Virus record (IMG/VR): IMGVR_UViG_3300045988_115476
From: a virus
DNA: 64,000 bases
Strand: one strand, 5' to 3'
Positions 5,419 to 64,000 of the stretch are shown here, piece after piece (within the stretch, counting starts at the first letter, position 1; every line of letters begins with the position of its first letter). The notes below the pieces were generated by a model. It saw nothing but the letters and a program-made list of their open reading frames with translations. It searched no databases and had not been told where the DNA came from. Both the position numbers and the translations under genes were made by a program.

Positions 5419-5425
5419 AGAAACA

Positions 5426-5860: not shown

Positions 5861-5864
5861 TGAA

Positions 5865-16719: not shown

Positions 16720-16730
16720 ATATTCTTAGT

Positions 16731-32346: not shown

Positions 32347-32365
32347 ACTACTAAACATTCAAGTT

Positions 32366-35300
32366 ATGAGCGATGCAATAGGAAGCGAGCTTTTTATCAG
32401 CAAAGAAGCACTCAACGCTATTGAGCGTGCTGACAAGAGGTTGCAGAACATACAAGAGACCGCAAGGGCAATGGGAACTACTGTGAACAATGCCTTTACG
32501 GCCATGTCTGGCGGTGCTAATATGTTCGCCGACAACCTTGACAAAATCATTCAGAAGATGAGGGCTATCGGCACGAATGCCACCACTGCAGGCCAAAACC
32601 TCAACAACTCCTTCTCCAACATAGGAAATAGTGCAAGGGATATGGGTGGAAGCGTCACCAAAGCCTCCGAGGTCATTGATGGCATGCGGCAGAAGCTGTC
32701 AAGCATGAGTGGCATGGGCACGGGAGGCATCCAGCAGGCCGCATTGGCCTTAGAGAGGCTTCAAAAATCCATGCAGAACAAGAGTGGCATGAACATTGCC
32801 AACCTCAAGGAGGAAATTACTGCGATCAACAATATTCTCAAGGACAAATCATACAACCTTACGTCCTCTGAGCAAGACGAACTTGTGAAGCGCAAAAAGC
32901 TCTTGCAGGATGAGCTCAAGTATCAGGAGCAGATGTATCAGGAGCGGACTGTGGCCTACCAAAAGGCCCTTGACCGAATGGCAAGTGCGCAACAGTCATA
33001 CGAGAACAAGCAGCGAAAGAATGCTAACGAACGTGCGCAGAAAAATCGTGAGAAGAACTATGCCACAAACACGACGTACCAGGGTGCGCTCAAATTCTCT
33101 GATAGCGCAAATACGCTCAATAGGCAAGCCCTTGCAGTAAAATACCTTGAAGAGGCAAAGCACAAGTTGTCGAAGACGGATTCTGACTACACTACGAAGC
33201 TGAACGCACTCAATGCGGCCATAGAGAAGCACAATGCCGTGCTCAATGCGGCAAAGCCATTGACTGAGGCAGCGCAGGCGCGTCAGGCGAAGGAGCTTGC
33301 ACAGAAATATCGTGAGAAGAACTATGCCAAAAACACGACGTATCAAGGCGCAATAGATTTTTCTAATAACGCAAGGACGCTCAACAGACATGCGCAGGCA
33401 ATAGAGTATCTGAGAGCGGCCCGCATGAAACTATCTACGACGGATCAGGACTATAGCAAGAAGCTCATCGCCTTGAATACCACCATCGAAAAGCACGCGA
33501 AGGTGCTTCGTGATGCGGGTGTGTCCGTGCAGGGCCTCGGAAAGAAGTATTCTTACCTTGACAGGTACATATCCCAACTCATTCAACGCACGGCGGTACT
33601 CTTCACTTTCAACTCGGCCAAGGACTTCATACGACAGATTGCCGAGGTGAGGGGTCAGATGGAGATGTCGCAACGTTCCCTGGAATCTATGTTGCAGAAC
33701 AAGGTGCAGGCCGATGAGATATTCAACAAGACCGTACAACTGGCCGTCAAGTCGCCGTTCCGCATCAAAGACTTGGTGAATTACACCAAGCAGCTTGCGG
33801 CATACCGTATTGAGAACGACAAACTCTATGACACCACCAAGCGGCTCGCCGACGTTTCTGCGGGCCTTGGCGTGGACATGAGCCGCCTTATCCTCGCCTA
33901 CGGTCAGGTCAAGGCTGCGGCCTATCTTCGTGGCTCTGAGGTTCGCCAATTCACGGAGGCGGGCATCAATATGTATGGAGAGTTACAGGCCCTCTTCAAG
34001 GAACGAGACAATGCTGACTATACGACGGCACAAATCGTCGATATGATCTCGAAGAGAATGATCAAGTTCAAGGACGTGGAGCAGGTGTTCCAGCGGCTCA
34101 CGGACAAGGGTGGAATGTTCTACGAAATGCAGGAACGGCAGTCGCAGACCCTTTGGGGTATGATCCAAAAGGCGGGCGACGCCTTCGATGTAATGCTCAA
34201 CGAAATTGGCAAGAGTAATGAAGGCGTTTTGAAGGGCACGGTCGCCTCGGCCATTGAATTGTTGAAGCATTGGAAGAGCATTGCGTCGGTAGCCAAGACG
34301 GCAATCGCTTTCTTTTTGGCTATCAAGACACACTCTATTGTCATTGCAATGTATCATAGTAAAATCGTGACTATGCTTCGTTCTGAACAATTGATTTCAA
34401 AACTGATTCATGGACAATGGCGTGCTATAGGCTCGTCCATATCGAATGTCGTAAAGAGTACCGGGTTGCTAAAGTCGTTAGGTGTCGGCCTGGTTGGAAC
34501 GGCTGCTGCATTTGGTCTTGAGGCAATTATTAGACATTACCAAAAAGTTGCCGACATGGAACGAGAGATTGCACAGGTAAACAGAGAGTATGCGGAATCG
34601 TTCGACAAACTCCAAGAAATACGGAAGAGTTTTGGAACGGAAGACGACAACAAGAGCATTGAGGACAAAAAGAAGGCTTTTCAGGAGCTTGTCACTTTGA
34701 TGCAGAATGCGAACTTTGACATAAAGATCGACATTAAGGGCTTGTCGAAAGAAGAGCTTCAAAAGCAATTCAATGTGGCAGAGGGATTGTATCAAAATTT
34801 CATTGAGACAACCCGAATGATAGATTACCGCTTCAAGGAAGATTCCTCCATCAAAGAGGATTTGGACAAATACTCTGCACAATATACGAAGATCATTTCC
34901 AAGACGACCGACTTGCGCTCCGTTCTTGACAATATTGCTGTCGAATACAAGAACCTCAGCAAGGATGCACAGAAATATTACGACATAGCCGCAAAGCCAC
35001 GACAAGACAATGAGGATGAAATGGCGTATCTTGAGAGAACAAGGAACGCCATGCAGAAAATAGCTGATATTACCGCAAGAAATCAAAGAGCGGGAACGGC
35101 CCTGCCTGGATTTGTCAACGAAATAAACGATAATGTAAGACAGCTCAACGAAGAGATTGCCAAACTGGATCAACAGAAAAATTCGCTGCTCAAGTTTGAT
35201 AAAAACACAAAAACTTGGTCTGGTAGCCTTGAACCTATACGTAAGGAATTGGAACGGACGTTCAACGATGCGGTAGATAAAGGTATCAGAAAAGGATTGA

Positions 35301-38300
35301 CGAAAAGTGCGGCTGTCAAAGAGGCGAAAATGACTGTCAAGGCATCAATCGACGACCGTTTTACGAAGAACGAGATCGACCAACTTGGCGCTCAATTATT
35401 ATATAAGCCCTTTGGCATCAATGTCAATATCGACAAGGCGAACGTAGAGGAGGAGGTGTCATGGATTGACGACTACCTTGAGCAATACTTCAAGAACAAG
35501 AAGTACAAAATCAATGTAGAGGTTAACCAACTTGATGCATACGCCGAAGGATTCAAGAGCCTCCTTGAGCGTGGAGACAAAGCGAAGGAGCAGTACGAAG
35601 CAGCAAAGAAATTTCTTGAACGTTTCGGCAAAATGAAGAGTACGCGTAAAGGTTGGATTCTTGCGGACCAAGACATACGGACAATCATGGGATCTTCTTT
35701 ACCACTTGCGCAGAAGTATGTTCACAGGGACAAAGTAAAAGCGCAGGCACAGGAGCTCCTGCGCATATACAAAGACGAGGCTATTAGCCTTGGTGTTGAT
35801 CCAGACGAGAAAGAAAACAAAAAGAGGGGCAAAGAAAGGGAGAGACAGCAAAGAAGGGAACAGAAAGAGCAACGAGACATTCTTTCTGAGCGCATCAGCC
35901 TGCTCTCTGACATGAATAGCAAATACAATGAGCTGTTGAGGAACGAAAGCAAGGAGGACGCACTCCTTCACACTCGCAAGTACTTCAAAGAGGCGGCAGA
36001 GAACGTGGGATGGACTACGGACGACATCATGCCGGACGACAAGGCCGTGGCCGACCGCATCAGGAAGATTGGTCGCATGTTCAAAGAGTTCACGAAGCGG
36101 GGTGACGCATTCCGCAAGGCGGCTGACATCGAAATGAACGGAAGTCTCAAAGTTTACGAAAAGCTGAGAGACCAAGTTTCCACAGATATTGATGAGGCAT
36201 TCGCTGGCCTTGACCTCTACAAGAGGCTCAAAGACAATAACGTCAGCGAGACCGTTATCAGAAAGTCGTTCGGAGACCTTGCCCACTCATTTGATGATCT
36301 GCGCGACATGGTGAATCGTGTCTTCAACCAATACACCTCTGCCTACTTCGACAAAATGTATGGAAGCGACCCCAACAAATGGTCGCAGGAAGTACTAAAG
36401 GAGTATGAGGAGGCTATCAAAGATACGGGCAAGGCCATGCAGAAATACTTCGGAGAGGAGCAATACAAGCAGTACAAGGAGGCTATGGCCCGGATTACCA
36501 AGCAGCAGAACCAACAGACCATTGATGACTTCAACAGGCTGACCAGCGACTACAAAACGAAGCTGACGGAGCAACTGGAGCTCGACAAATGGTATGTGGA
36601 GGAACGTCGCAAGATATACGACGACGAGACGTTGAAGAATAATCCCGAATTACAGAAGGAAGATCTCGACAACCTCAAGAAACAGTACGACAAGAAGACT
36701 ACGGACAACTCCTGGAAGTCGTTCCAAGAAAGCGATATGTATATACGCCTCTTCGAGAACCTTGATCATGCTTCAACCGCCATGCTGACGGCCATGCGGG
36801 ACAAACTACAGTCCATCAAAGAGAGCCTCAAAGACCTCGATCCTGCACAAATCAAGCAAATTGTGCAACAAATGGAGAAGCTGGACGAAAGGATTCTTGC
36901 CAACAACCTCAATAAGAACCCGTTCAAAAACCTTGTGTCAAACATCAAGGAGTACGTCAAGTATGCAAAGGAACGTGAGCAGATTGAGAAACGATACACG
37001 GCCTACCTCAAAATGCAGAACCACCTCGAAACACAGAAGCGGGAAGAGGAGCTACTCGTGGCCGAGGCCGACGAAAAGTACAAAAACGACGAAAAGGTTC
37101 ATGGCGCGGATTCTGAGGAGGCTAAGTCGGCCAAGGCGGTGCTTGAGGTAAGAAAGCAGAACCTTGCCGTTATTTCCCACCAACTCAAAGAACAGGAGAA
37201 GATAACGAAAGAGGAGGCCAAGCAACTGAACAATGGCGAGAAGCTGAAGAAGGCCCTCATGGAGCAATCACAGAAGATTGGAGATTCCTTCGGAGATGCG
37301 GCATCGGCCATCAATGCGTCATTTGAGATGCTGGAAGACTGGGGCATCGACGCCGAAATCCCCGACGAAATGACGGAGATAGTGGGCGGCTTCGAAAAGA
37401 TTGATTCTTCCCTGCACCAGATAGCATCTGGCAAGTATATCACCGGCGCGGTATCGCTCATCGGCGGTATCGGCAAGTCCCTCGGCGGCATCTTCGGATG
37501 GGGCACGAAGGACAAGAAGCTGGAGAAGAAGATTGCCAAACACCAAAGGGCCATCGAAAGGCTCTCGGAGGCTTATGAAAAGCTAAAAGAGAGCATGGAT
37601 GATGCGTGGAGCATGGAGGACTTGAAAAAGTACAACGACGAGATGGTGAAGAACATCGAATTGCAGAACGCCAACCTTCGCTCCATGATTGCTGCGGAAA
37701 AGGACAAGAAAAAAACCGATAGCAACAAAATCCACGAGTACGAAAAGCAGCTTGAAGAGAACATGAAGGTGCTCAAGGAGATGAAGGAAAGCCTCATCGA
37801 GCAACTGGGTGGATTCGGAAGCGAGGCCAACTACAAGGCGGCGGCGCAAGCCTTCGCAGACGCATGGTTTGACGCTTTCAAAGAAGGCAGCAATGCACTC
37901 GACGCACTCAACGAGAAGTTTGAAGAGTACATTCAGAACCTTATCAAGAAGCAGCTCATGCTCCGGGTGGCACAGAAATACTTGAAGCCATTGCTTGAGA
38001 TGGTTGACAAGTCGCTGGAAGAAGGTAGCGACGGTGGCATGAAGCTCACGGACCAGGAACTTGCCGCAATCAACAAGCTTGGCGATTCAACAATGAAGCA
38101 GTTGGAAGAAGCATTCAAGAACGTGACGGATTCGATCGGTTTTGTTAGTAAGGCGAAAGACAACCTTTCTGGCCTCCAGCAGGGCATACAAGCCGTCACG
38201 GAGACTACGGCAAAATCGCTTGAGGGATTGCTGGGAAGTATGAGATACTACCTCGCAACACAACAGGCCGACGTGAGAATCATACGTGACACCCTCCTCG

Positions 38301-38470
38301 AAAGGCTCGGGACGATTGCTCAGCAGCAGGCAGGCGGTTCGTCAAACATCATGGTGGATCTCCTGCAACAGCAAGTGGAGTATATGAAGAGGCTATCGTC
38401 AAACTTTGAAAGCGTCATGAAGGCGGGACACTCCAAAGGTGGATATGGTCTGCGGGTATTCCTCAACTAA
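32366..38470 (+). CDS. tape measure protein (about 2034 aa from ATG 32366)
   Basis: Very long helical ORF after the chaperone pair, with a hydrophobic central segment and an internal 88-codon tandem duplication. Confidence 0.8.
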   Translation: MSDAIGSELFISKEALNAIERADKRLQNIQETARAMGTTVNNAFTAMSGGANMFADNLDKIIQKMRAIGTNATTAGQNLNNSFSNIGNSARDMGGSVTKASEVIDGMRQKLSSMSGMGTGGIQQAALALERLQKSMQNKSGMNIANLKEEITAINNILKDKSYNLTSSEQDELVKRKKLLQDELKYQEQMYQERTVAYQKALDRMASAQQSYENKQRKNANERAQKNREKNYATNTTYQGALKFSDSANTLNRQALAVKYLEEAKHKLSKTDSDYTTKLNALNAAIEKHNAVLNAAKPLTEAAQARQAKELAQKYREKNYAKNTTYQGAIDFSNNARTLNRHAQAIEYLRAARMKLSTTDQDYSKKLIALNTTIEKHAKVLRDAGVSVQGLGKKYSYLDRYISQLIQRTAVLFTFNSAKDFIRQIAEVRGQMEMSQRSLESMLQNKVQADEIFNKTVQLAVKSPFRIKDLVNYTKQLAAYRIENDKLYDTTKRLADVSAGLGVDMSRLILAYGQVKAAAYLRGSEVRQFTEAGINMYGELQALFKERDNADYTTAQIVDMISKRMIKFKDVEQVFQRLTDKGGMFYEMQERQSQTLWGMIQKAGDAFDVMLNEIGKSNEGVLKGTVASAIELLKHWKSIASVAKTAIAFFLAIKTHSIVIAMYHSKIVTMLRSEQLISKLIHGQWRAIGSSISNVVKSTGLLKSLGVGLVGTAAAFGLEAIIRHYQKVADMEREIAQVNREYAESFDKLQEIRKSFGTEDDNKSIEDKKKAFQELVTLMQNANFDIKIDIKGLSKEELQKQFNVAEGLYQNFIETTRMIDYRFKEDSSIKEDLDKYSAQYTKIISKTTDLRSVLDNIAVEYKNLSKDAQKYYDIAAKPRQDNEDEMAYLERTRNAMQKIADITARNQRAGTALPGFVNEINDNVRQLNEEIAKLDQQKNSLLKFDKNTKTWSGSLEPIRKELERTFNDAVDKGIRKGLTKSAAVKEAKMTVKASIDDRFTKNEIDQLGAQLLYKPFGINVNIDKANVEEEVSWIDDYLEQYFKNKKYKINVEVNQLDAYAEGFKSLLERGDKAKEQYEAAKKFLERFGKMKSTRKGWILADQDIRTIMGSSLPLAQKYVHRDKVKAQAQELLRIYKDEAISLGVDPDEKENKKRGKERERQQRREQKEQRDILSERISLLSDMNSKYNELLRNESKEDALLHTRKYFKEAAENVGWTTDDIMPDDKAVADRIRKIGRMFKEFTKRGDAFRKAADIEMNGSLKVYEKLRDQVSTDIDEAFAGLDLYKRLKDNNVSETVIRKSFGDLAHSFDDLRDMVNRVFNQYTSAYFDKMYGSDPNKWSQEVLKEYEEAIKDTGKAMQKYFGEEQYKQYKEAMARITKQQNQQTIDDFNRLTSDYKTKLTEQLELDKWYVEERRKIYDDETLKNNPELQKEDLDNLKKQYDKKTTDNSWKSFQESDMYIRLFENLDHASTAMLTAMRDKLQSIKESLKDLDPAQIKQIVQQMEKLDERILANNLNKNPFKNLVSNIKEYVKYAKEREQIEKRYTAYLKMQNHLETQKREEELLVAEADEKYKNDEKVHGADSEEAKSAKAVLEVRKQNLAVISHQLKEQEKITKEEAKQLNNGEKLKKALMEQSQKIGDSFGDAASAINASFEMLEDWGIDAEIPDEMTEIVGGFEKIDSSLHQIASGKYITGAVSLIGGIGKSLGGIFGWGTKDKKLEKKIAKHQRAIERLSEAYEKLKESMDDAWSMEDLKKYNDEMVKNIELQNANLRSMIAAEKDKKKTDSNKIHEYEKQLEENMKVLKEMKESLIEQLGGFGSEANYKAAAQAFADAWFDAFKEGSNALDALNEKFEEYIQNLIKKQLMLRVAQKYLKPLLEMVDKSLEEGSDGGMKLTDQELAAINKLGDSTMKQLEEAFKNVTDSIGFVSKAKDNLSGLQQGIQAVTETTAKSLEGLLGSMRYYLATQQADVRIIRDTLLERLGTIAQQQAGGSSNIMVDLLQQQVEYMKRLSSNFESVMKAGHSKGGYGLRVFLN

Positions 38471-50010: not shown

Positions 50011-50880
50011 ATGAAAGTAATTATCTACAGTCGTGTTTCGACCGACAAACAAACGTTTGCTCAGCAGGAGCGGACGGTCAACGAATGGTTGTCTTGCCAC
50101 GGCCTGACTGCCACCGACGAAGTGAGTGAGGCGGGTGTCAGCGGTAAGGTGTCGTACAAGTCGCGAAACCTTGGCCGCGTCGTCCTCCCCATGCTTGAAC
50201 GTGGCGACATTCTCATCGTGTCTGAGGTGAGCCGTATTGGCCGTTCTATGTGCGATATTAACAAGTTCGTGAATGACGAGCTCAAACCAAGGGGCGTGCG
50301 CCTGGTGATCGTGCAAATGGGCCTTGATATAGATTGTGCCAACTTGAAGGCCATCGACGAGATGTTGCTGTTCTCCTTCTCCTTTGCGGCTCAGCTCGAA
50401 AGGGAATTGATTCAGGAGCGCACACAGTCGGCCATCGAGGTCTTGAAGCGGAAGCTAAAGGATGACGGCCAGTTTGTGTCGAAGAAAGGCCGGGTGTGTC
50501 ACGCCCTTGGGCGCCCGAAGGAGACTGACACCACGGTGGCCACTACAGAATCGGCCATCAATCGGAAGGAGGAGGCCCGCCAAAAGCCCTACAATAAGGC
50601 CATCTGGCAGGTGTTGAAGGCATGTACGGAGAATTTCTCGGTCCTGGGATCTGACCGGTTTGACAAAGGGGTAGAGATACTCAACGGTATGGGCGTGAAG
50701 TCGGCCACGGGCAAGGAGTTTTCCCGTGCCAGGCTTCGTAGTGCTTACTATAACCTTCGGTCAGTATTCACGGACTATCGGCCCATCAGGAAGGATAGCG
50801 CCGTCTATCGCAATATGATAGAGCAGGGCGAGGATTCGCGTACTGGTTGGCGTGAATATAGGCAAGAAAATGGGATTTAG
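50011..50880 (+). CDS. serine recombinase (resolvase/invertase family)
   Basis: N-terminal VIIYSRVSTDKQ (catalytic Ser), ...VSEVSRIGRS and ...AQLERELIQERT. Confidence 0.75.
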   Translation: MKVIIYSRVSTDKQTFAQQERTVNEWLSCHGLTATDEVSEAGVSGKVSYKSRNLGRVVLPMLERGDILIVSEVSRIGRSMCDINKFVNDELKPRGVRLVIVQMGLDIDCANLKAIDEMLLFSFSFAAQLERELIQERTQSAIEVLKRKLKDDGQFVSKKGRVCHALGRPKETDTTVATTESAINRKEEARQKPYNKAIWQVLKACTENFSVLGSDRFDKGVEILNGMGVKSATGKEFSRARLRSAYYNLRSVFTDYRPIRKDSAVYRNMIEQGEDSRTGWREYRQENGI

Positions 50881-55949: not shown

Positions 55950-56295
55950 AATTCTTTTCATTAAGTCCTGCTTGGGGTTGCGGCGGAGGAGATCACCCGC
56001 TGCTTCCCAAGGCCCTGCCAAGTGGATTTGGTGCATCCTTCGTGGAGGGTAGCGGGTTCGACTCCCGCCAGAGCCGCCAGGACAAAGTGAGAGAATAACT
56101 TGGAAGTCGCGCTCCATGTCTCAAATAGGATTAAGTCCATCTTTATAGGTAACACTATATATGCCCCTATCCTGAGTTCGTTGTGCGCGACACGAGCAAA
56201 GGATGGGGGATTTTCGTCCCATGAATTTAGGATGTATTTTCCAGTAACTAAGTTATGCATTTTTCCTGCTGGTTCGTGAGAATAGGCGGGTTTTT
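55950..56295 (+). ncRNA. roughly 340-nt promoter-to-terminator noncoding leader containing a tRNA-like 3' module
   Basis: No credible ORF. Contains GCGGG-TTCGACT-CCCGC-CAGAGCC-G-CCA (56052-56079) and ends at hairpin h6, just upstream of ORF 56332. Confidence 0.4.
56265..56295 (+). terminator. GNRA-capped terminator hairpin h6 (near-identical to h1)
   Basis: CCTGCT-GG-TTC-GTGA-GAA-TA-GGCGGG followed by TTTTT. Confidence 0.55.
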
Positions 56296-56331
56296 CAAAA
56301 GAATACAACATTAAACAAAATATAGAACGAA

Positions 56332-57231
56332 ATGAAAAGAATGACAAGAAAAGAAGCTGCCGAGTATCTCGGCGTTTCAATCAGCACTATCTCCAACTAC
56401 ATGGCAGAGGGTGTTCTTGGTGGTTTCAAGGATCACAAAAACCTCATCTATGTGAATGCTGAGGACGTGGAGAAGTATGCAAAGCAATACCGCATGATTC
56501 CTGCCAGCGAGAAACTGCTCCAGGAGAAGCTTGATGAGTTGGAACGGTTGCGCAATGAGGCAAAAGAAGAGATTGCCGAGTTGCGGAAAGGATTCCTTGG
56601 CCCTACTTTGTCTCGTTTCAATCATCCAGCCATAGGATGGGCCATTATGGCCTTGAACAGGATTGTAGGAGACGTCCATATTCCGCGTAGAGAAGAAAGT
56701 GTGTTGCTTAGAGTGTTCGTAGGTGAAGATTTGGTCGATATTGCCGAAGAAAAAGGCGTGACGATAGAACGCATACGGCAGATAACAATCAGCGCCTGCC
56801 GACACCTCTGCGACAAAGAGCAAGAGTTAATGAAAGACTTAAAGAGCAATGCCAGGCTATTGAAGGAGAATGAGGCCCTTTGCCATGATGTAATCGTTCT
56901 CCAAGAATTTATCAAAAACATACCCGGCGTAAAATTTGAACGGGAGCTCCTTACGCCTCCTGCCTTGTTCTACAAGAAAATATCTAATTGTGGATTCAGC
57001 GTCCGAGTAACAAATAGTCTGACCTTCGGAGGTATTGAGACCGTAGGCGACATGATAACGAAATTCAACAGCTTTCAGCACATGTTGGACATGAGTGGTC
57101 TTGGCCGGGTAAACCTCCGTGAGATTGAAGCCTTCATGAAGGAGAACCATCTGGTGTTCCGAAGAAAAAACGAAGGCTACAAGGAGTACTTTGCCCGATT
57201 GACCAAATACGGAAAGTATAAGAAATGCTGA
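56332..57231 (+). CDS. composite transcription regulator: N-terminal HTH, sigma-70 region-4-like segment, RpoA alpha-CTD-like C-terminus
   Basis: MTRKEAAEYLGVSISTISNYM; ESVLLRVFVGEDLVDIAEEKGVTIERIRQITISACRHL; FSVRVTNSLTFGGIETVGDM...GLGRVNLREIEAFMKE. Confidence 0.55.
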   Translation: MKRMTRKEAAEYLGVSISTISNYMAEGVLGGFKDHKNLIYVNAEDVEKYAKQYRMIPASEKLLQEKLDELERLRNEAKEEIAELRKGFLGPTLSRFNHPAIGWAIMALNRIVGDVHIPRREESVLLRVFVGEDLVDIAEEKGVTIERIRQITISACRHLCDKEQELMKDLKSNARLLKENEALCHDVIVLQEFIKNIPGVKFERELLTPPALFYKKISNCGFSVRVTNSLTFGGIETVGDMITKFNSFQHMLDMSGLGRVNLREIEAFMKENHLVFRRKNEGYKEYFARLTKYGKYKKC

Positions 57232-57274
57232 TAGAGACTATTTGAAATGGTTCAACTGAACAGACGACAATAAC

Positions 57275-57976
57275 ATGATAGAGCTTAACAAAATATACAA
57301 CGAAGATTGCCTGAATGGAATGAAAAAGATTCCAGATTCGAGTGTTTCGTTAGTAGTGACAGACCCTCCGTATTTGTTAGACAATATCGGGGGTGGTATT
57401 TATTCGCAAGACGACAAGCGTTATGCAAAAGAGCTCGAAGATATAAAAAGTGGATTCGACCTAAAGGTTTTAGATGAATGTTGCAGGGTTTTAAAGAAGA
57501 TAAATATATACTTGTGGTGCAGTCAAAAACAAATACCGATTTACTTAGATTACTTTGTACGAGGTAAAGGCTGTTACTGGAATTTGCTTACATGGCACAA
57601 GACAAATCCCGTTCCTGCGTGTGGAAACAAATACGTTAGCGACACCGAGTATTGTTTGTTCTTTAGAGAAAAAGGCGTACCGATATACGGGAACGTTCAT
57701 ACTAAAGGGACATTCTTCGTTACGCCCCTAAATACTACCGACAAGAAAACTTGGGGGCACCCAACAATAAAGCCTTTGCGGTTCTTTGAAAACCATATCA
57801 TCAATTCAAGTCAAGAAGGCGACATAGTTCTCGACCCATTTATGGGTAGCGGAACCACCGCCATAGCGGCCATCCGCGAGAAACGCAACTTTATCGGCTT
57901 TGAACTCAACAACGAGTATTACGACAAGGCTTGCAAGCGCATCCGCTTGGAAATGGCGCAACAGACATTGTTTTGA
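57275..57976 (+). CDS. beta-class N6-adenine/N4-cytosine DNA methyltransferase
   Basis: Motif IV VVTDPPY precedes motif I DPFMGSGTT. Confidence 0.85.
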   Translation: MIELNKIYNEDCLNGMKKIPDSSVSLVVTDPPYLLDNIGGGIYSQDDKRYAKELEDIKSGFDLKVLDECCRVLKKINIYLWCSQKQIPIYLDYFVRGKGCYWNLLTWHKTNPVPACGNKYVSDTEYCLFFREKGVPIYGNVHTKGTFFVTPLNTTDKKTWGHPTIKPLRFFENHIINSSQEGDIVLDPFMGSGTTAIAAIREKRNFIGFELNNEYYDKACKRIRLEMAQQTLF

Positions 57977-57998
57977 TTAACAAACAGTAGTAACTAAT

Positions 57999-58100
57999 AT
58001 GAAACGCAAGGCAGAAGGTGTTAAGGCGGATCCAGCCCAACTTGTTCATTTGATACGAAAGGCGGGCCATTATAAACAACGAAACAACATAAGACAATGA
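57999..58100 (+). CDS. basic mini-ORF (33 aa)
   Basis: ATG 57999. Its TGA overlaps the next ATG as ATGA (58097-58100). Confidence 0.3.
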   Translation: MKRKAEGVKADPAQLVHLIRKAGHYKQRNNIRQ

Positions 58101-58231
58101 AAGTAAGATTAGCAAAGAAACTTGCGCTCAGGCCGATGTGCAAACTGTCAACACGATGGATCATGCGGTACTTCAACAATGACGCGAGGTTTAACAAAGC
58201 GTTTAGGATGATTAAGCGAAAGCGCAAATGA
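58097..58231 (+). CDS. basic mini-ORF (44 aa)
   Basis: ATGA overlaps at both ends (58097-58100 and 58228-58231). Confidence 0.3.
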   Translation: MKVRLAKKLALRPMCKLSTRWIMRYFNNDARFNKAFRMIKRKRK

Positions 58232-58359
58232 CCAATATAAGCGTATCTGTGCATCCAATAAGTCACCATGTGGAATGGAGTGGATGGGTGGCAGTCTCTC
58301 CTGCCCTTCGTGCCACGGACTACAAGTGTCCTCATTGTGTGTTGATAGAGTATGAGTAG
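58228..58359 (+). CDS. TRD-like minigene a (43 aa)
   Basis: ...VAVSPALRATDYKCPHCVLIEYE followed by a stop. Confidence 0.4.
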   Translation: MTNISVSVHPISHHVEWSGWVAVSPALRATDYKCPHCVLIEYE

Positions 58360-58517
58360 CGACAAAACATACCACCACGCCAAGAAGGTTATGTGTGTGG
58401 TGGGGGGGGGTATATACGAGTGTGTCCGCAAAGTTCAATCGTGGAAGCCTTGTGGGACTAAGCCGATGCCTAAAATCTACTACGAATGATGCGGGGATAA
58501 TGATTGAGTATGAGTAA
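58352..58517 (+). pseudogene. TRD-like cassette b, split by a G9 tract (58402-58410); out of frame as sequenced
   Basis: The ATG frame reads MSSDKTYHHAKKVMCVVGGG... and ends at TGA 58487-58489. The frame after the tract reads GGVYTSVSAKFNRGSLVGLSRCLKSTTNDAGIMIEYE and ends at TAA 58515-58517. Confidence 0.4.
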
Positions 58518-58836
58518 AGACGATAGTATCATATATAAGCGTGGAACTATCCGCAAGGATGGAAAGCTGTATGGCCGCTATCCCGACGGTTCGCTCTATC
58601 GCATCTACTCTACCAGCGACCGGCCCTTCCTTCAGCTGGTGGACATTGGAGGGGAGACATTTCTTCGCATACGCCAAGCCACCGAACAAGGATACACCGA
58701 CTGTCCCTGTCCTGGAGCCGCCGACCTCAGCTATCCGTCCTCGGCTTTGAGGCGCAGTCGCACAGTCGGCGGGGGTAAGATCACGAACACTCTGACCGCT
58801 GCAAGTGGCGGAATCTGCGTGTTTGTTGAATTATAA
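58510..58836 (+). CDS. TRD-like minigene c (108 aa)
   Basis: IRQATEQGYTDCPCPGAADLSYPSSALRRSRTVGGGKITNTLTAASGGICVFVEL. Confidence 0.5.
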   Translation: MSKDDSIIYKRGTIRKDGKLYGRYPDGSLYRIYSTSDRPFLQLVDIGGETFLRIRQATEQGYTDCPCPGAADLSYPSSALRRSRTVGGGKITNTLTAASGGICVFVEL

Positions 58837-58939
58837 AATTTTGATAGAGATGGATTTTACGGACTATGATCCCCGCAAGGGTCTCCGATGTGAATCATAT
58901 TTTGGTAAAGATTTACGATAAACAAAGAAATACAACGAT

Positions 58940-59083
58940 ATGACAGAAGAATATTTGAAAAGGAAATATGAAGAGCTTGAATCAATGAAAGATGAGCAAA
59001 GAACGGACTGCACGGTGATACTGCTTTTGTGTGTACTTTTGCTATTGCAAATGCTTTTTCTATTGCTTTTCGCCTTTGCTTGA
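58940..59083 (+). CDS. 47-aa tail-anchored peptide
   Basis: MTEEYLKRKYEELESMKDEQRTDCTVILLLCVLLLLQMLFLLLFAFA. Confidence 0.3.
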   Translation: MTEEYLKRKYEELESMKDEQRTDCTVILLLCVLLLLQMLFLLLFAFA

Positions 59084-59091
59084 ATATAAAA

Positions 59092-59217
59092 ATGTATGAC
59101 ATATATCAAAGGCCTCGTGGTTACAACAAGGGTGGACGTTTGCGGACGGACGTCTGCCCAACTATCACGGAATCTGATTGGCAACAGAACTGCTTCCTTA
59201 TAGAGGAATTTTCATAA
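59092..59217 (+). CDS. TRD-like minigene d (41 aa), in frame with the core methyltransferase across a single TAA
   Basis: MYDIYQRPRGYNKGGRLRTDVCPTITESDWQQNCFLIEEFS, then TAA 59215-59217. Confidence 0.45.
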   Translation: MYDIYQRPRGYNKGGRLRTDVCPTITESDWQQNCFLIEEFS

Positions 59218-59235
59218 CTAAATATATCATCAACT

Positions 59236-60549
59236 ATGATAACAAAAATAAACTTCGAAGATAGAACCATTAAGAGCTATGCCATACGCAAGTTTACGCC
59301 ATTTGAGTGTTTCCGCCTGATGGGCGTGCGTGACGACGTTATCAAAGCCATGCAGAGCAACAATGCCCGGGCCGCAGAGATTGTTCCCGAGTACAAGGGG
59401 ATGGGAAAGCCCGAAGACATGGCCATATCTGCCAGCCAGCAATACAAAATGGCGGGCAATAGTATCGTCGTAGATGTGCTTGCGGCCATATATGAGCAGC
59501 TGTGGTTTCCAAAGGCAACAAAGGCCAAGGGCGTGCAGTTGTCACTCTTCGAAGAAGAGACATTGCCCGACACTCCAGTAGAGGCCGATTCCGCCAACAA
59601 AGAGAAAGTCTTCCTGACCCTATTCTCTGGCTATGATTCGCAACTCATGGCAGCAGACGTTCTCCGCAAGCGCCATCCCGAGTTCAAATGGACGTGCGCA
59701 GGATGGAGCGACATTGACAAATACGCCTGCATGATGCACAACCTCGTATTTCCTCAGTATGCCGACAAAGCATTGGGAGACATTACGAAGATAGATTGGC
59801 GAAAAGTGAAGAATACCTTAGCGGGGAGGCAAATTGTAGATATGCTCACTTACAGTTCGCCTTGTCAAGATATTTCACAATGTGGCAAGCAGATGGGGTT
59901 GAAGGAAGGATCCGGCACTCGTTCTGCCCTATTGTGGAACGTGGTGGACGCAATAGAGGTGTTGCGCCCCAAGTATCTGTTGCAGGAGAATGTGGCCGCA
60001 TTGGTGAGCAAGAAGTTCATGCCCGACTTCCAGCGGTGGCTTGATAAACTCTCTTCGCTCGGATATGTGTCAAAATGGGCACGGCTCAATGCGCGAGACT
60101 ATGGCGTACCACAAAACAGAGACAGAGTGTTTTGCTTAAGCATGCGAAAAGAAGTTGCCTTCAACAACCAGTTCCCAGAACCCATAGCACTTCAACGAAG
60201 ATTGGAGGACGTACTTGAAGAGGAGGTGGCCGACCGATATTTTCTCAAAGATGATGCCGTAGGAAAGTTCCTTGAGGCCAACAACTCGGACAACGCCCTA
60301 TTCGTTCAGTTTGACCTTCCACCAACACACGAGGAAGCAATGTTTCTCAAGACATGGCTCACCATGTGGATGCAATCAGCCGATGGTTGGGAAATGACAT
60401 CCGTAAGTCTTCAACGCGCCCTTTGCTCCGCAAAGCAGGAAATGGAGTTGTCTTATTCCGTATTCAAGGACAAGGGGGTGACCGCATTAGGCGAAGAGTT
60501 TGAACGGCTATTCTCGAAGAATATGGAGAGGAAGAATGATGGAGTGTAG
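59236..60549 (+). CDS. C5-cytosine DNA methyltransferase with circularly permuted motif order (IX-X, then I-VIII)
   Basis: RKFTPFECFRLMG and QYKMAGNSIVV come first, then LFSGYDS, SSPCQDIS, QENVAAL and PQNRDRVF. Confidence 0.8.
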   Translation: MITKINFEDRTIKSYAIRKFTPFECFRLMGVRDDVIKAMQSNNARAAEIVPEYKGMGKPEDMAISASQQYKMAGNSIVVDVLAAIYEQLWFPKATKAKGVQLSLFEEETLPDTPVEADSANKEKVFLTLFSGYDSQLMAADVLRKRHPEFKWTCAGWSDIDKYACMMHNLVFPQYADKALGDITKIDWRKVKNTLAGRQIVDMLTYSSPCQDISQCGKQMGLKEGSGTRSALLWNVVDAIEVLRPKYLLQENVAALVSKKFMPDFQRWLDKLSSLGYVSKWARLNARDYGVPQNRDRVFCLSMRKEVAFNNQFPEPIALQRRLEDVLEEEVADRYFLKDDAVGKFLEANNSDNALFVQFDLPPTHEEAMFLKTWLTMWMQSADGWEMTSVSLQRALCSAKQEMELSYSVFKDKGVTALGEEFERLFSKNMERKNDGV

Positions 60550-60727
60550 GATTACCCGCGTCTCGCCATTATTTACACTTTCGGGTGGAGCAAACGGGCA
60601 AATGGTGAACGTGACGGACGGACATTGTTCGGCCACCATAACAACAAGATACGAGGCGATAGGCCCTACCAATATCATCACGCTCGCCCACTATCCAATG
60701 ACAGTAGTATTGTATGAGTTTGAATAA
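60536..60727 (+). CDS. TRD-like minigene e (63 aa)
   Basis: Its start overlaps the core gene stop. ...DGHCSATITTRYEAIGPTNIITLAHYPMTVVLYEFE. Confidence 0.45.
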   Translation: MMECRITRVSPLFTLSGGANGQMVNVTDGHCSATITTRYEAIGPTNIITLAHYPMTVVLYEFE

Positions 60728-60869
60728 GACAGTCGTAAACGCAGCAGGTGGGGGTATTACCCTTGTCCGAACGATAAAGGCAAACTACTTCAAAATGGGA
60801 GCGCAGAATTTGCTATTCACGAAGAGAAATAGTTTTTTGGCTACGGGAGTAATTTTAGAGTATGAATAA
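60714..60869 (+). CDS. TRD-like minigene f (51 aa)
   Basis: MSLNKTVVNAAGGGITLVRTIKANYFKMGAQNLLFTKRNSFLATGVILEYE. Confidence 0.4.
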   Translation: MSLNKTVVNAAGGGITLVRTIKANYFKMGAQNLLFTKRNSFLATGVILEYE

Positions 60870-60886
60870 ACAAAAACAATGATAAA

Positions 60887-61255
60887 ATGATTACTATCAA
60901 TAAAATGACAAACAAAGGATGTGTCCAAATTTATAGTGGCAACATCGATCTGACGGGAAAGCGCATCACCATGACATCCGACGGCTTCTTTGTGGACGGG
61001 AAACCGATTGTAGAGTTTGATGAGAGCGAGACACCCGTCCTGAAAATTGAGATAACGGGAAACGTTGAAAGCCTGACAACAGAAGACGGAGAGATTACCG
61101 TGAATGGGCATGTCGGAACGGTTGTTTCAAAGGACGGAGACATCAAATGTCGGACGGTTGGTGGCAATGTGGAGAACAAGGACGGAGACATCTATTGCGG
61201 AAAAGTCATGGGAAACTGTTACACAAAGAACGGCGACATTTACTGCAACAAATAG
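60887..61255 (+). CDS. beta-helix repeat protein (bactofilin/DUF583-like repeats), inserted in the cassette array
   Basis: Repeats GNVESL, GHVGTV, GDIKCRTVGGNV, GDIYCGKVMGNC and GDIYC. Confidence 0.4.
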   Translation: MITINKMTNKGCVQIYSGNIDLTGKRITMTSDGFFVDGKPIVEFDESETPVLKIEITGNVESLTTEDGEITVNGHVGTVVSKDGDIKCRTVGGNVENKDGDIYCGKVMGNCYTKNGDIYCNK

Positions 61256-61279
61256 GTGTGAATAATGTGCGAACAATAA

Positions 61280-61399
61280 ACTGCCCCCCAGATAAGTGCG
61301 ACCATCACGGCCCATTACCGCAAGGAAGGCTTCGGGAACATCCTTCACGGGATGAGCTCGATGACCAAGGCACCAGCAATATTGGTAGAATATGAGTAA
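61280..61399 (+). pseudogene. TRD-like cassette g, lacking its own start codon
   Basis: Open frame reading TAPQISATITAHYRKEGFGNILHGMSSMTKAPAILVEYE. Confidence 0.35.
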
Positions 61400-61562
61400 C
61401 CGCAGTAGAATCACAACCAAGCTTCAGCCAATCATCCTTGGCTATTACAGTCCATCGCAGAACGGAATAGTCGTGTCGCCGCATGGTATAGCACATTGCC
61501 TATCTGGGGGGGGTAAAGGCCACGACGTGGATAAACCAAAAATATTGATTGAATATGATTAA
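61392..61562 (+). CDS. TRD-like minigene h (56 aa), contains an in-frame G8 tract (61506-61513)
   Basis: ...GIVVSPHGIAHCLSGGGKGHDVDKPKILIEYD. Confidence 0.45.
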   Translation: MSNRSRITTKLQPIILGYYSPSQNGIVVSPHGIAHCLSGGGKGHDVDKPKILIEYD

Positions 61563-61743
61563 AAAAACTAATCACGAGTGGTTGCAAATCGGATGTATCT
61601 GCGTAGGTCGTCTGATTCCTCCAACACCAGGATGGCATGAGCTGTGCCTTCGCATTTATTCACCTCGTGGTTGCAGCCCCTGCATCCCAGCAAGAGCAGC
61701 AGACGCAACCGTCTGTCCGAAAATACTCATAGAATATGCTTAG
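61555..61743 (+). CDS. TRD-like minigene i (62 aa)
   Basis: ...LRIYSPRGCSPCIPARAADATVCPKILIEYA. Confidence 0.45.
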   Translation: MIKKTNHEWLQIGCICVGRLIPPTPGWHELCLRIYSPRGCSPCIPARAADATVCPKILIEYA

Positions 61744-61900
61744 AAAGAATACCAGGTTAGAGATAATGTTTCAGCATGGTTTCCGGCCATCGCATGGAAT
61801 GTGGATAGACACATACAACCAGCAGTTTGGTAGGATTGTCACATTCACCATTCTTTCGACGGTTGGAAAGAATAACTATTTTGTGGTAAAAGAGCTATGA
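61736..61900 (+). CDS. TRD-like minigene j (54 aa)
   Basis: ...FGRIVTFTILSTVGKNNYFVVKEL. Confidence 0.35.
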   Translation: MLRKNTRLEIMFQHGFRPSHGMWIDTYNQQFGRIVTFTILSTVGKNNYFVVKEL

Positions 61901-62046
61901 GAAAATTGATTCCGTTCGTACAAAGAACCTCACGGGTATATCCGAGGCAAGGCTACTCAACGGCTATCTCCGCACGATACGACGGTTGGGCCGGCCTTTA
62001 CGACATGCACGGGCAGCACACGATCATATTGGTAGAATATGGATGA
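61897..62046 (+). CDS. TRD-like minigene k (49 aa)
   Basis: MRKLIPFVQRTSRVYPRQGYSTAISARYDGWAGLYDMHGQHTIILVEYG. Confidence 0.45.
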   Translation: MRKLIPFVQRTSRVYPRQGYSTAISARYDGWAGLYDMHGQHTIILVEYG

Positions 62047-62163
62047 ACAGATTGTAACAAAAACGAACTTGCGGAGCGCATTGTGCGCCTCCTGCCAAAG
62101 CGCACACACCTCGTGGATTTGTTTTGCGAGGAAACAAGAGAGTGCAGCTTAGTTTGTTCTAAA

Positions 62164-62197
62164 CAAAATTGCACAAATCTTCAAAAGTGTGCAATTT
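62164..62197. promoter_or_regulatory. operator-like perfect dyad (copy 2)
   Basis: AAATTGCACA (62166-62175), a 12-nt spacer, then TGTGCAATTT (62188-62197). The 12-mer CAAAATTGCACA is shared with 43825. Confidence 0.45.
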
Positions 62198-62319
62198 CTG
62201 ATTATACGGACTGATTGAAATTACCAAATACCTTATTTCGTTTTATGTCTATTTAAGTGGCGGGGGATGCGTGAGCACCTCTCGCCATGCTTTTAGTATG
62301 CTCGTACTAAAGAACATGT

Positions 62320-62369
62320 TAGCCAAAACGCCGTTTCCTTAACACGTTTCATGCAACATGTTAAGGAAA
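62320..62369 (-). terminator. terminator downstream of the integrase gene
   Basis: TTTCCTTAACA (62334-62344) pairs with TGTTAAGGAAA (62359-62369). On the minus strand it is followed by CGGCGTTTTGGC. Confidence 0.5.
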
Positions 62370-62437
62370 TGACATTTTGTTAACATGATAACTCAAACAG
62401 ATTACACCTTGCCATGGTTGTGATTAGTGTTTACCTC

Positions 62438-63643
62438 CTAATCGGTCCTGCTTAGGGCCAAGTCGGCATTGAGCGCATTGATAACTTTCCTGTTGGCCTC
62501 ATCTATCTTTCGGTTGTCGAAATTGATGTATAGGTCAGTTGTCGTCGAATCCCATTCGCTATGGCCGAGGGCCTTTCCTATCACCTCCTTCGGAATGTCA
62601 AGGCTGGCCGCTATCGTGGCCCATGAACGCCTGGCCGTGTACCACACAATATCATCGTGCAATGGCTTCAACTGCTTCTTGATAAGTGCGCCCCTGCGAT
62701 TCTTCACCAATTCTACCTTTCCTATCCTCTTGATGTAGTCTCCAAGCCGTCGCTTGAAACTCGACAACTTTGTGCCATCATCCAGGAAACGAACAAGATG
62801 CTTCGTACCATGGTACTTGTTGATAATCTCCAGGGCCTCGGGCTCTACCTTGATGTCGTACAGACGGCCCGTCTTCTTGCGTCGATATACAATGCGTCCG
62901 TGCTTGATAGCATTCGCTGGCAGCTCAAGAAGGTCAGAAAGATTGATGCCGATAAGATAGAATCCGAGCAGGAACATGTCACGGTACTTCTCCATGAAAT
63001 CCTCTACCTCAATGTCTCTGTATTCGCGCATCTCCTCTATGGATAGGTACAGAAACTTTTGTCGTTCCGTCTTGATGGTGAACTTGCGGAACGGGTAATT
63101 CTTCGTTTCCTCGTTGTCTATGGCCCAGTTGAATACGGCCCGCATGTTGCGGAAGTCAATGGCAATTCCATTCATCTTGCGGCCACGCATGATTTCGTGT
63201 GCCAAGAAACCGTCAAGCCACCTACGGTCAATATCATCGATCAATGCCTTTTCGTCGTACATGACCAGCCGCTTTCTCGTAGTCTCATAGATACCACGGG
63301 TGCTTTCGTTGGTCTTTGTCTCCATAAACTCCTCGAAGTAGTGGACGAGTGATTGTCCCGACTGAGGCTCCTCGCCGTTAATGATAGCTTTGATATTGCG
63401 CCTCATCAACTCGAAGGGTTCATTCAGGTGTTTCTCCATATATGCGTCTATGGAGGAATAGAGACTTGCAAGGCGTGCCGTCTTTGCCGTACTGTTTGGC
63501 GTACTGTTTGGAAACACGAGGCCCGAGAATTTTTCGCTACTCCTCATGCCAGTACTTACTTGGAATCTTTTCTTCTTGTAAGAAATAATGAAGTACACAC
63601 AATTCGTCTTTCCATCGACGTATGGCTTAATGCTCGTTATCAT
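62438..63643 (-). CDS. int: tyrosine integrase (Bacteroidota phage-integrase type)
   Basis: Has an N-terminal SAM-like domain and a catalytic region: ...RIVYRRKKTG..., YTARRSWATIAA, ALGHSEWDSTTTDLYINF. Confidence 0.85.
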   Translation of the reverse strand: MITSIKPYVDGKTNCVYFIISYKKKRFQVSTGMRSSEKFSGLVFPNSTPNSTAKTARLASLYSSIDAYMEKHLNEPFELMRRNIKAIINGEEPQSGQSLVHYFEEFMETKTNESTRGIYETTRKRLVMYDEKALIDDIDRRWLDGFLAHEIMRGRKMNGIAIDFRNMRAVFNWAIDNEETKNYPFRKFTIKTERQKFLYLSIEEMREYRDIEVEDFMEKYRDMFLLGFYLIGINLSDLLELPANAIKHGRIVYRRKKTGRLYDIKVEPEALEIINKYHGTKHLVRFLDDGTKLSSFKRRLGDYIKRIGKVELVKNRRGALIKKQLKPLHDDIVWYTARRSWATIAASLDIPKEVIGKALGHSEWDSTTTDLYINFDNRKIDEANRKVINALNADLALSRTD

Positions 63644-63689
63644 AATTTATACAGGTGTTTTTTCACTGATAATCAAACCTGCCGTTTTT

Positions 63690-63950
63690 TACTCACAGAT
63701 TTACCCACAAAATCGCCAGATTTAGCCACGTTTATGATGGGTTATTTGCCAAATTTTCCGTATGAATATAGCTGTTTTCTGATTTCTTTTTTACAGAGAA
63801 ATTTTGTAAGGTGTTGATTTTCAGTGTATTCCTGCTAAAGAGCGGAATACGGGAGTCGAACCCGCCTCCTCGGCTTGGGAAGTTTTTACGTCTCCCGAAA
63901 ATACGCTTATTACCAGGGGTTTACGTTATCAATAGAATACCTACTCACAG
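63690..63950. other. att region: tRNA-3'-half core (63841-63885, tRNA sense on the minus strand) flanked by direct arm-type repeats
   Basis: The minus strand reads CTTCCCAAGCCGAGGAGGCGGGTTCGACTCCCGTATTCCGCT. TACTCACAG occurs at 63690-63698 and 63942-63950. No matching 5' acceptor strand lies to the right. Confidence 0.5.
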
Positions 63951-64000
63951 TTTGCTCACACCTCGTGCGAACGACTTTGGAAAGCGTACATGGAGTAAGA

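Follow-up and report, generated by a model that had tools for sequence, protein, structure and literature searches.

The multispecific C5-cytosine methyltransferases (C5-MTases) of Bacillus phages, such as M.SPRI, M.Phi3TI, M.H2I and M.Rho11sI, carry on one framework several target recognition domains (TRDs) of ~40-50 residues, each of which is thought to confer one specificity. Their role is anti-restriction, and self-protection against host restriction is the known role of multispecific phage methyltransferases. To our knowledge, the presentation of the TRDs to the active site of multispecific C5-MTases has never been resolved structurally. Circularly permuted C5-MTases also exist in nature: M.BssHII, M.Alw26I, M2.Eco31I, M.Esp3I and M2.BsaI have been called 'Type H' (PMC5944983), and the majority of the natural permuted enzymes appear to keep their TRD covalently attached, in the order TRD-IX-X-I-VIII (PMC5944983, PMC3404938). 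M.AquI and M.EcoHK31I are natural two-polypeptide C5-MTases, and split permuted versions of M.MpeI and M.SssI have been engineered (PMC3404938, PMC5944983). In Type I and Type III methyltransferases, simple-sequence repeats are reported to switch specificity or expression in a phase-variable manner (PMC7383803, PMC10123105). Here we analyse a locus in a 64,000-nt stretch of viral DNA (IMG/VR record IMGVR_UViG_3300045988_115476, hereafter the window) in which a permuted C5-MTase without TRD is flanked by an array of short open reading frames (ORFs), the minigenes or units, that resemble isolated TRDs. Related loci and proteins are designated below by L and P numbers, and the features of the locus are collected in Table 1.

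A first, sequence-only reading of the window had proposed that the central ORF encodes a permuted C5-MTase, and this proposal holds: the 437-aa product matches PF00145 in a profile search (E = 1e-49), contains all the motifs that had been quoted and aligns in two blocks with M.MpeI. Since residues 15-91 correspond to the C-terminal motifs IX/X of that enzyme and residues 152-353 to motifs I-VIII, the motif order is IX-X-I-VIII. The AlphaFold2 (AF2) model obtained with a diverse alignment has a predicted local distance difference test score (pLDDT) of 85.6 and a predicted template modelling score (pTM) of 0.81, and its best Foldseek matches are M.MpeI, M.HhaI and M.HaeIII. The protein starts with a beta-hairpin (residues 1-15, with strands at residues 1-6 and 11-15 in the model, ahead of the catalytic domain), followed by motifs IX-X, a linker, motifs I-VIII, a proximal variable region and a C-terminal extension. 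It contains no TRD, as motif VIII is followed by the proximal variable region (FPEP...DRYFLKDDAVGKFLEANN), a helical extension of ~85 residues and the stop codon. The N-terminus (MITKINF...) begins right at the hairpin, 17 residues ahead of motif IX, and the closest upstream unit (H) ends 18 nt upstream of the core (its TAA stop and 15 nt lie between). The extension is made up of a variable middle between two conserved ends ('FDLPPTHEAAMFLKT' and 'ENMERKK') and is absent from the canonical single-chain enzymes of L002, L028 and L025, in which the proximal variable region leads straight into the TRDs; it is a candidate docking or adaptor element for TRD subunits.

Eleven TRD-like units flank this core, all of them on the + strand. 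Of these, nine are intact; a frameshift at a run of nine G disrupts one, and an early stop another. The sequence-only reading had listed 11 mini-ORFs; all were recovered at their coordinates and on that strand, with the correction that 58352-58517 (unit T) consists of two frames and that 61280-61399 (unit S) has no start codon. Its observations that every unit ends in a hydrophobic strand and that neighbours overlap (ATGA at 58097 and 58228, and an 8-nt TATGNNTRR) were borne out as well. Over the 64-kb window, the tail pattern has 16 matches on the + strand, 11 of which lie within this 3.8-kb stretch, and six in total on the - strand. A split methylase system of this kind is missed by standard annotation, the minigenes having no Pfam family and being partly uncalled: only part of them is predicted by gene callers, Pfam and PHROGs searches returned nothing for nine out of ten and only a weak match for unit L (phrog_8411, E = 3e-4, function unknown), and in a word-indexed homologue search with unit I the only finds were two database clusters in which unit I is called as a stand-alone 62-aa protein.

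The nature of the units can be addressed through more distant relatives, some of which encode a multispecific enzyme as a single chain that contains homologous TRDs. L002/L026 (455 aa) and L028 (440 aa) encode chains of canonical motif order with three to four tandem TRDs, and L025 (5998-7863) encodes an intact canonical-order enzyme of 627 aa with many. Nine minigene families significantly match TRD segments inside these chains. The best match links family Q to residues 254-297 of the L028 enzyme (56% identity over 46 aa, E = 1e-11); A, K, L and N match L025, H and D match L002, and F and O match L028. Unit L of the window corresponds to residues 414-458 of the 627-aa enzyme (42% identity over 45 aa) and unit H to residues 336-367 of L002 (44% over 34 aa). 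The recognition core of unit U ('SPALRATDYKCPP') is also found directly ahead of motif IX (RIRKITPRE) in L001, a locus from a Bacteroidales metagenome-assembled genome, and a segment like unit G can be read in L020-type arrays. In addition, a de-permuted construct (core residues 122-352, unit I, core residues 1-93) aligns continuously to residues 35-251 of M.HhaI and enters the HhaI TRD (~224-251; ...KTVRLGIVGK...RIYSTRGIAITL vs ...LQIGCICVGRL...RIYSPRGCSPCI), while M.HaeIII aligns through both artificial junctions. Judged by these alignments, the minigene units are genuine TRDs, and the single-chain relatives can be read as ancestral states that explain the origin of the split system without refuting it. 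The L017-L030 group, to which L025 belongs, represents a second phage family; apart from that of L025, its canonical-order enzymes are frameshifted at differing points in most loci, often beside GGG-coding stretches.

TRDs fused to a permuted core occur too. In P0235 and P0276, a TRD that by eye resembles family G is fused N-terminally, ahead of the hairpin (MIAQIN...), so that the order is that of true M.BssHII-type enzymes; P0204 carries two TRDs at its N-terminus. In P0166 (491 aa), a TRD that by eye resembles family A is fused in frame to the C-terminal ...ENMERK of the core. That a TRD can be tethered to either terminus of the core fits a position of the TRD in the gap between both termini. 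Fused and free forms coexist: in L032, three free TRD ORFs lie ahead of the fused-TRD core P0235. P0210 and P0207, in contrast to the fused forms, are again cores without TRD. Some hits in Bacillus phages (e.g. Deep Blue) were rejected as permuted enzymes, as tblastn had run across two adjacent canonical MTase genes. In Deep Blue (L035; NC_031056, 72150-77920), three genes in a row carry the annotation of DNA methyltransferase, and a tandem arrangement like this one could yield a permuted core by fusion.

The split layout is conserved. A scan of IMG/VR with the core retrieved 28 loci, and in the 14 closest (L003-L016, cores 66-99% identical) mini-ORF arrays with the same tails are always present, downstream of the core and often upstream too. 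The sequence-only reading had named one intact conventional enzyme in close relatives as a finding that would refute it; these relatives carry the split layout instead. The units cluster in at least 21 TRD-like families (A-U), each in 2-12 loci. Family order is roughly collinear, but families are present in some loci and absent from others, and some have moved from one side of the core to the other. The turnover of cassettes is fast, since L003-L008, whose cores are 94-98% identical at the DNA level, carry differing arrays (e.g. M-D-F-A; M-D-P-I-J-G-B-E-N-A; C-D-G-B-F-A). The layout also recurs in an independent ENA contig with a SPAdes-style name (L031), where five units precede the core and ten follow it. 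At a larger distance, P0324 (L034) is a 357-aa TRD-less permuted core, 44% identical and directly followed by two overlapping TRD minigenes, in a phage whose neighbouring genes are otherwise different from those of the window. The permuted core family is widespread: the best 120 hits in each of two protein searches (~7,000 C5-MTase hits each) are 434-491 aa long and 67-99% identical, and at least 190 permuted-core clusters were counted among the matches listed, essentially all TRD-less and of 434-463 aa. For some of these clusters, the source is named as 'uncultured Prevotella sp.' or 'Caudoviricetes sp.'.

Purifying selection acts on the minigenes, which are not debris. The ratio of nonsynonymous to synonymous differences per site (pN/pS) is 0.16-0.53 for every TRD family (pS 0.04-0.85), and 0.8-2.8 for most off-frame controls taken from the same DNA. 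When the window units are compared to their nearest non-trivial orthologues, the pooled pN/pS is 0.28 (p = 8e-37), and the true ratio must be lower because synonymous sites are near saturation. Individual comparisons include unit L with L014 (pN 0.079, pS 0.386), unit M with L004 (pN 0.208, pS 0.714) and unit E with L010 (78% amino acid identity, pN 0.149, pS 0.788). A dN/dS near 1 had been named beforehand as a sign against function; the values are well below 1.

The junctions between units are constrained as well. Out of 120 consecutive unit-unit junctions, 51 consist of an 8-nt overlap (TAT-GNN-stop) that encloses the next ATG and 11 more are of the ATGA type. Among 64 non-redundant ORF ends chosen by their protein tail alone ([ILVMF]2-[EK]-Y-x-stop), the tail tyrosine is encoded by TAT in 62 and by TAC in two, against 49% TAT in the large genes of the window (p = 5e-17), and the last residue has a G-starting codon (D, E, A or G) in 60. 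The synonymous tyrosine site and the final residue are both constrained to keep the embedded ATG. An independent (re)initiation of the next cistron predicts such a retention of the ATG, which neither frameshifting nor bypassing would need. Nucleotide conservation at the junctions fades within ~20 nt upstream and is absent downstream. A consensus scan found no terminator-like site on the + strand within 58000-62046; promoter and terminator counts were at chance level in these scans, which are ill-suited to Bacteroidota promoters. The conservation over 14 loci, the low pN/pS and the retained ATG agree with the view, already put forward in the sequence-only reading, that the array is probably a coupled set of TRDs rather than debris.

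It seems likely that a single catalytic core works with interchangeable TRD subunits of 40-110 residues that complement it in trans, and that the system acts as a multispecific anti-restriction methylase. The core gene, with its IX-X-I-VIII order and no TRD, would supply catalysis and cofactor binding, and the TRDs would be supplied as proteins of ~40-110 residues from the same-strand minigenes on both sides. The minigenes would be translated in succession by termination-reinitiation, each start codon being embedded in the last codons of the previous unit. A TRD subunit would then dock non-covalently in the gap between the core termini, bringing in the recognition loops of the small domain, with its conserved C-terminal strand ([ILV]3-E-Y-D/E) beside the N-terminal hairpin of the core. 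Each core-TRD pair would methylate its own DNA motif, and the phage DNA would thereby be shielded simultaneously from many restriction systems of hosts. Cassettes would be gained, lost and moved between phages at short conserved junctions, and poly-G runs in many of them would switch single specificities on or off. We infer from the evidence above that the minigenes are translated, that their products assemble physically with the core, that the complexes methylate DNA with distinct specificities and counteract restriction, and that switching occurs within populations. The sequence-only reading had offered three mechanisms by which the TRD pieces might serve the core; complementation in trans fits the data, and neither frameshifting nor recombination as a switch is supported, for reasons given below.

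Several points weigh against this interpretation. We know of no direct natural precedent for a stand-alone TRD of 40-60 residues that binds a core to which it has neither of the two covalent links. Reinitiation would have to run along ~7 cistrons, and initiation in Bacteroidota is poorly modelled. AF2 did not place unit G on the core (diverse alignment; TRD residues at pLDDT <50), and the model of unit I with the core, made with a shallow alignment, has a pLDDT of 33.7. Two of the 11 window units are disrupted: T is frameshifted, and S is probably inactive because its ATG soon meets an in-frame TAA (it contains a C6 run at 61284-61289, and intact orthologues are present in L006, L010 and L031). 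The core itself carries nonsense mutations in L010 (6001-7317; TAG at a Trp codon) and in L013 and L014 (6001-7350; TAA at a Tyr codon and TGA at a Trp codon), with arrays that are mostly still open. These mutations indicate that the methylase system has been lost in some lineages and, together with the many frameshifted units, that part of the array family may be decaying. A reassignment of stop codons in these three loci was rejected: three different stops at Trp and Tyr codons are plain nonsense, and unit ends use all three stop codons, so that there is no single recoded stop. Finally, the differences in poly-G length described next could in principle be assembly errors; L031 shows such differences too.

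Runs of at least 7 G or C number 25 in 31 kb of arrays and five in 146 kb of flanking phage DNA, a ~23-fold difference (p = 7e-15). Within the arrays, 23 of the 25 are G on the coding strand, and several of the flanking runs lie in unannotated units. The window contains three runs of at least 8, two of them within the array (units T and B). GGG makes up 19% of the glycine codons of the units, 7.6% in the large genes of the window and 6.5% in cores, and within the units Gly-Gly is most often encoded by GGGGGG. L013 and L014 have four internal differences in 13.3 kb, two of which are changes in G-run length, in units C and O. The state of the reading frame follows the run: unit E is open with G7 and closed with G8, O is open with G8 and closed with G7, T is open with G8 and closed with the G9 of the window, and B is open with the G8 of the window and closed with G7. 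T is thus a single intact ORF of 54 codons with G8 in L016 (97-99% identical) and is also G8 and intact in L015, and B is broken at the site of the run in L009 (no run of 5 G or more in the unit), in L015 (G7) and in L031. Over the loci, nine run-bearing units are in frame and 11 are not; in L031 (a NODE contig, SPAdes-style, coverage 260) both B and L are broken at G runs. These are features of contingency genes: coding homopolymers are over-represented and their length varies between near-identical genomes, shifting the frame. The runs, which the sequence-only reading had not noted, therefore suggest a contingency locus with putatively phase-variable specificities and a possible route to stochastic switching of specificity unit by unit. 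More tentatively, the locus may encode a phase-variable combinatorial epigenetic coat, in which diffusible TRD subunits and poly-G slippage at high frequency would give up to 2^n patterns of 5-methylcytosine (m5C). Such a coat would let the phage hedge between two kinds of host, those whose Type II systems are methylation-sensitive and those whose Type IV restriction is methyl-dependent. The enzyme would also be the first Type II-like m5C methyltransferase whose specificity subunits are free-standing and can be exchanged, and it would offer a natural platform on which m5C specificity is programmed by peptides of ~50 residues.

Other explanations can be considered. The mini-proteins could be real and have another role, for instance by inhibiting host methyltransferases or restriction enzymes or serving as TRD-derived decoys for them, or by regulating the core; they are indeed under selection, and AF2 gave no confident docking to the core. 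Nevertheless, the minigenes always come with a TRD-less core, with which they share the strand and are translationally coupled, they retain the full recognition-loop architecture of catalytically used TRDs, covalent fusions to the core occur in relatives, and the core would otherwise have no means of sequence recognition, all of which makes another role improbable.

An equally doubtful possibility is that the array is a silent store, from which recombination (by a shufflon, an invertase or gene conversion) would bring one TRD at a time into an expressed position fused to the core. The window does encode two candidate recombinases, the tyrosine integrase at 62438-63643 and a serine resolvase/invertase at 50011-50880, ~15-20 nt of similar sequence are common to the junctions, arrays differ among near-identical phages and fused variants exist. 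Yet all units are in direct orientation, no meaningful inverted repeats were found in the array region (only short, poorly matched ones), every cassette has its own start and stop codon, and conservation disappears past the coding tail. Essentially all the ~190 clusters listed are TRD-less (434-463 aa), P0166 being the only fused one, and the integrase stands where an ordinary phage integrase would, at the prophage end. The idea that TRDs are recombined onto the core as a switch is therefore not retained, with homology limited to ~20 nt at most, although gain and loss on an evolutionary scale are evident. The serine recombinase, which has a Resolvase N-terminal domain and the PHROG label 'DNA invertase', is encoded on the + strand, and ~8 kb separate it from the array downstream; no inverted repeats that it could use were found in the array, to which the search was confined.

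It is very unlikely that the TRDs are joined covalently during translation, by programmed frameshifting or bypassing at the junctions that would produce core-TRD or tandem-TRD polypeptides. The overlap of neighbouring units in different frames, the single-chain tandem-TRD enzymes of relatives (such as that of L025), the rare in-frame fusion in P0166 and the lack of an ATG in several of the L017-L030 pieces speak for such joining. Nevertheless, the overlaps of 8, 4 and 14 nt and the gaps of +3 nt and more would require different shifts at different junctions, all three stop codons are in use over the 120 junctions (TAA 67, TGA 29, TAG 24), and neither a conserved sequence past the stop nor any Rfam family (in 56000-64000) was found. 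Nor would a frameshift mechanism need the junction ATG that is selectively retained, and the suggestion that units are frameshifted onto the core is not supported in view of these heterogeneous junctions, stop codons and conserved ATGs.

Least credible is a decaying, non-functional remnant of a former single-chain multispecific methyltransferase: related canonical enzymes are often frameshifted (L017-L030), three cores carry nonsense mutations (L010, L013 and L014) and two window units are broken, but the minigene frames are under purifying selection at saturating synonymous divergence, the split layout with its embedded ATGs is regular and conserved over core identities of 44%-99%, the core family has very many members of uniform length, and an intein at the catalytic motif of L016 is compatible with a still-expressed core, even if no established rule links the two.

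Table 1. Features of the C5-MTase locus and its surroundings, with positions in the window
Feature	Position	Strand	Sequence	Basis or remark
Mini-ORF, 33 aa, basic, not TRD-like	57999..58100	+		ATGA overlap to next ORF; conserved only in near-identical L016; no Pfam match
Mini-ORF, 44 aa, basic, not TRD-like	58097..58231	+		ATGA overlap on both sides; no Pfam match
TRD minigene, family U, 43 aa	58228..58359	+	...SPALRATDYKCPHCVLIEYE	Tail pattern, family clustering
TRD minigene, family T, out of frame	58352..58517	+		Frames 58352-58489 and 58395-58517, split at G9 (58402-58410)
TRD minigene, family L, 108 aa, large TRD	58510..58836	+	...TNTLTAASGGICVFVEL	Homology, selection
Hydrophobic ORF, 47 aa, not TRD-like	58940..59083	+		In gap of upstream array; conserved only in L016
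TRD minigene, family H, 41 aa	59092..59217	+	...CPTITESDWQQNCFLIEEFS	Same frame as core
Catalytic core, TRD-less circularly permuted C5-MTase, 437 aa	59236..60549	+		PF00145, motifs, AF2
Motif IX	59287-59325	+	RKFTPFECFRLMG	Read in core ORF
Motif X	59440-59472	+	QYKMAGNSIVV	Read in core ORF
Motif I	59620-59640	+	LFSGYDS	Read in core ORF
Motif IV	59854-59877	+	SSPCQDIS	Read in core ORF
Motif VI	59983-60003	+	QENVAAL	Read in core ORF
Motif VIII	60109-60132	+	PQNRDRVF	Read in core ORF
C-terminal extension of core	60298..60546	+		AF2: strand 355-359, helices 365-381, 389-413, 415-430
TRD minigene, family M, 63 aa	60536..60727	+	...SATITTRYEAIGPTN...VVLYEFE	ATG 14 nt inside core ORF end
TRD minigene, family D, 51 aa	60714..60869	+	...TIKANYFKMG...GVILEYE	Matches L002 residues 295-315
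Non-TRD ORF, 122 aa	60887..61255	+		phrog_3163 match; 48-nt internal repeats (G-D-I motifs)
TRD unit, family S	61265..61399	+	...ISATITAHYRKEG...AILVEYE	ATG 61265, in-frame TAA 61277-61279
TRD minigene, family B, 56 aa	61392..61562	+	...GIAHCLSGGGKGHDVDKPKILIEYD	G8 run 61506-61513, in frame here
TRD minigene, family I, 62 aa, HhaI-like	61555..61743	+	...LCLRIYSPRGCSPCIPA...KILIEYA	M.HhaI TRD alignment
TRD minigene, family G, 54 aa	61736..61900	+	...MWIDTYNQQFGRIVTFTIL...YFVVKEL	Similar TRD in P0235/P0276
TRD minigene, family E, 49 aa	61897..62046	+	...YSTAISARYDGWAGLYD...ILVEYG	Last array unit
First terminator-like hairpin on + strand past array	62271..62285	+		Consensus match only, weak evidence

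The window is a temperate phage or prophage of Prevotella type. It encodes a terminase, a portal, a major head protein, an anti-repressor and an integrase; no tRNA genes were found in it, and it has no match to GenBank phages at the DNA level. Three very large ORFs (2302, 1617 and 2047 aa), at 9811-21584 (-) and 32327-38470 (+), make up much of the phage genome. Two genes lie directly upstream of the array, at 56332-57231 (+) and 57275-57976 (+): one product combines HTH_17, a sigma-70 region 4 and an RNA polymerase alpha-CTD-like domain and the other is an N6/N4 DNA methylase (PF01555). A grouping of an RNA_pol_A_CTD protein, a C5 core and an N6_N4 MTase is found again at the distant locus L034, and this recurrence of a similar pairing suggests that the neighbourhood is a conserved methylation module. 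Among the ORFs of the locus that are not TRD-like, 58097-58231 has a pN/pS of 0.78, a value that is uninformative because it is based on very little divergence, and 60887-61255 sits in the middle of an array in this phage only. In L016 (IMGVR_UViG_3300045988_093531), a 358-aa intein (4942-6015; domains Hint_2, Intein_splicing and LAGLIDADG_3) interrupts motif IV precisely at its catalytic Cys, with the junction TYSSP|C FVAGT...IVHN|CQDIS; the window copy has no intein at the corresponding site (59857-59862).

The components of this system are all known: C5-MTase chemistry, multispecific phage enzymes, circular permutation, two-subunit enzymes and homopolymer phase variation. No description of their combination, a TRD-less permuted core with up to a dozen or more coupled TRD minigenes and poly-G runs, was found in the literature searched. 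The sequence-only reading likewise knew of no description of the layout, and no account of free-standing TRD genes for C5-MTases was met in that literature, the coverage of which was incomplete. The separate TRD proteins of 40-110 residues would imply that a TRD can dock and work without a covalent link to the catalytic domain, and would bear on the way in which TRDs reach the active site. One MTase gene could then give many motifs in metagenomic methylomes, and methyltransferases engineered for targeted methylation could be given another specificity through the exchange of a small peptide. The spread of the core family also bears on the arms races between phages and their hosts.

Compared to the multispecific enzymes of Bacillus phages, the locus is similar in that several TRDs are available per catalytic framework and that the system is phage-borne, and the enzymes of L025, L002 and L028 are precisely that single-chain form. 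It differs in that the TRDs, which in the Bacillus phage enzymes are contiguous between motifs VIII and IX, are here separate cistrons with their own starts and stops, the core having none, and in that they are more numerous (up to 11-15 per phage, from at least 21 families). Like the Type H enzymes, the window core has motifs IX-X before motif I and its breakpoint in the variable region. Unlike them, with their covalent N-terminal TRD, it has its start past the TRD and its end ahead of it, which cuts both links, whereas the relatives P0235 and P0276 keep the true Type H order TRD-IX-X-I-VIII. The nearest analogues are M.AquI, M.EcoHK31I and the split M.MpeI/M.SssI, the fragments of which are made separately, with the split in the variable region, and which are precedents for an active enzyme that is put together from pieces. 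Yet these systems have one fixed partner, and their small fragment also carries motif IX and/or X, whereas in the window both motifs are in the core, the small subunit is a TRD alone and many partners would compete for the core. Since this core has no TRD and the minigenes are under selection, its activity would probably require a separately translated TRD polypeptide.

As for switching systems, shufflons and other invertible specificity loci differ from the window array, in which all units are on the + strand and inverted repeats are short and weak. Type I restriction-modification systems (HsdM and HsdS) and phasevarions resemble it by their separate, exchangeable specificity subunit and their repeat-based switching. 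The Type I and Type III enzymes are nevertheless N6-adenine methyltransferases of unrelated fold and subunit architecture, and hsdS switching proceeds by inversions or repeats in full-size genes, not in arrays of 50-residue minigenes. If the proposed complementation in trans is true, the specificity of m5C methylation would nonetheless reside in a swappable small subunit, as that of the Type I systems does in HsdS.

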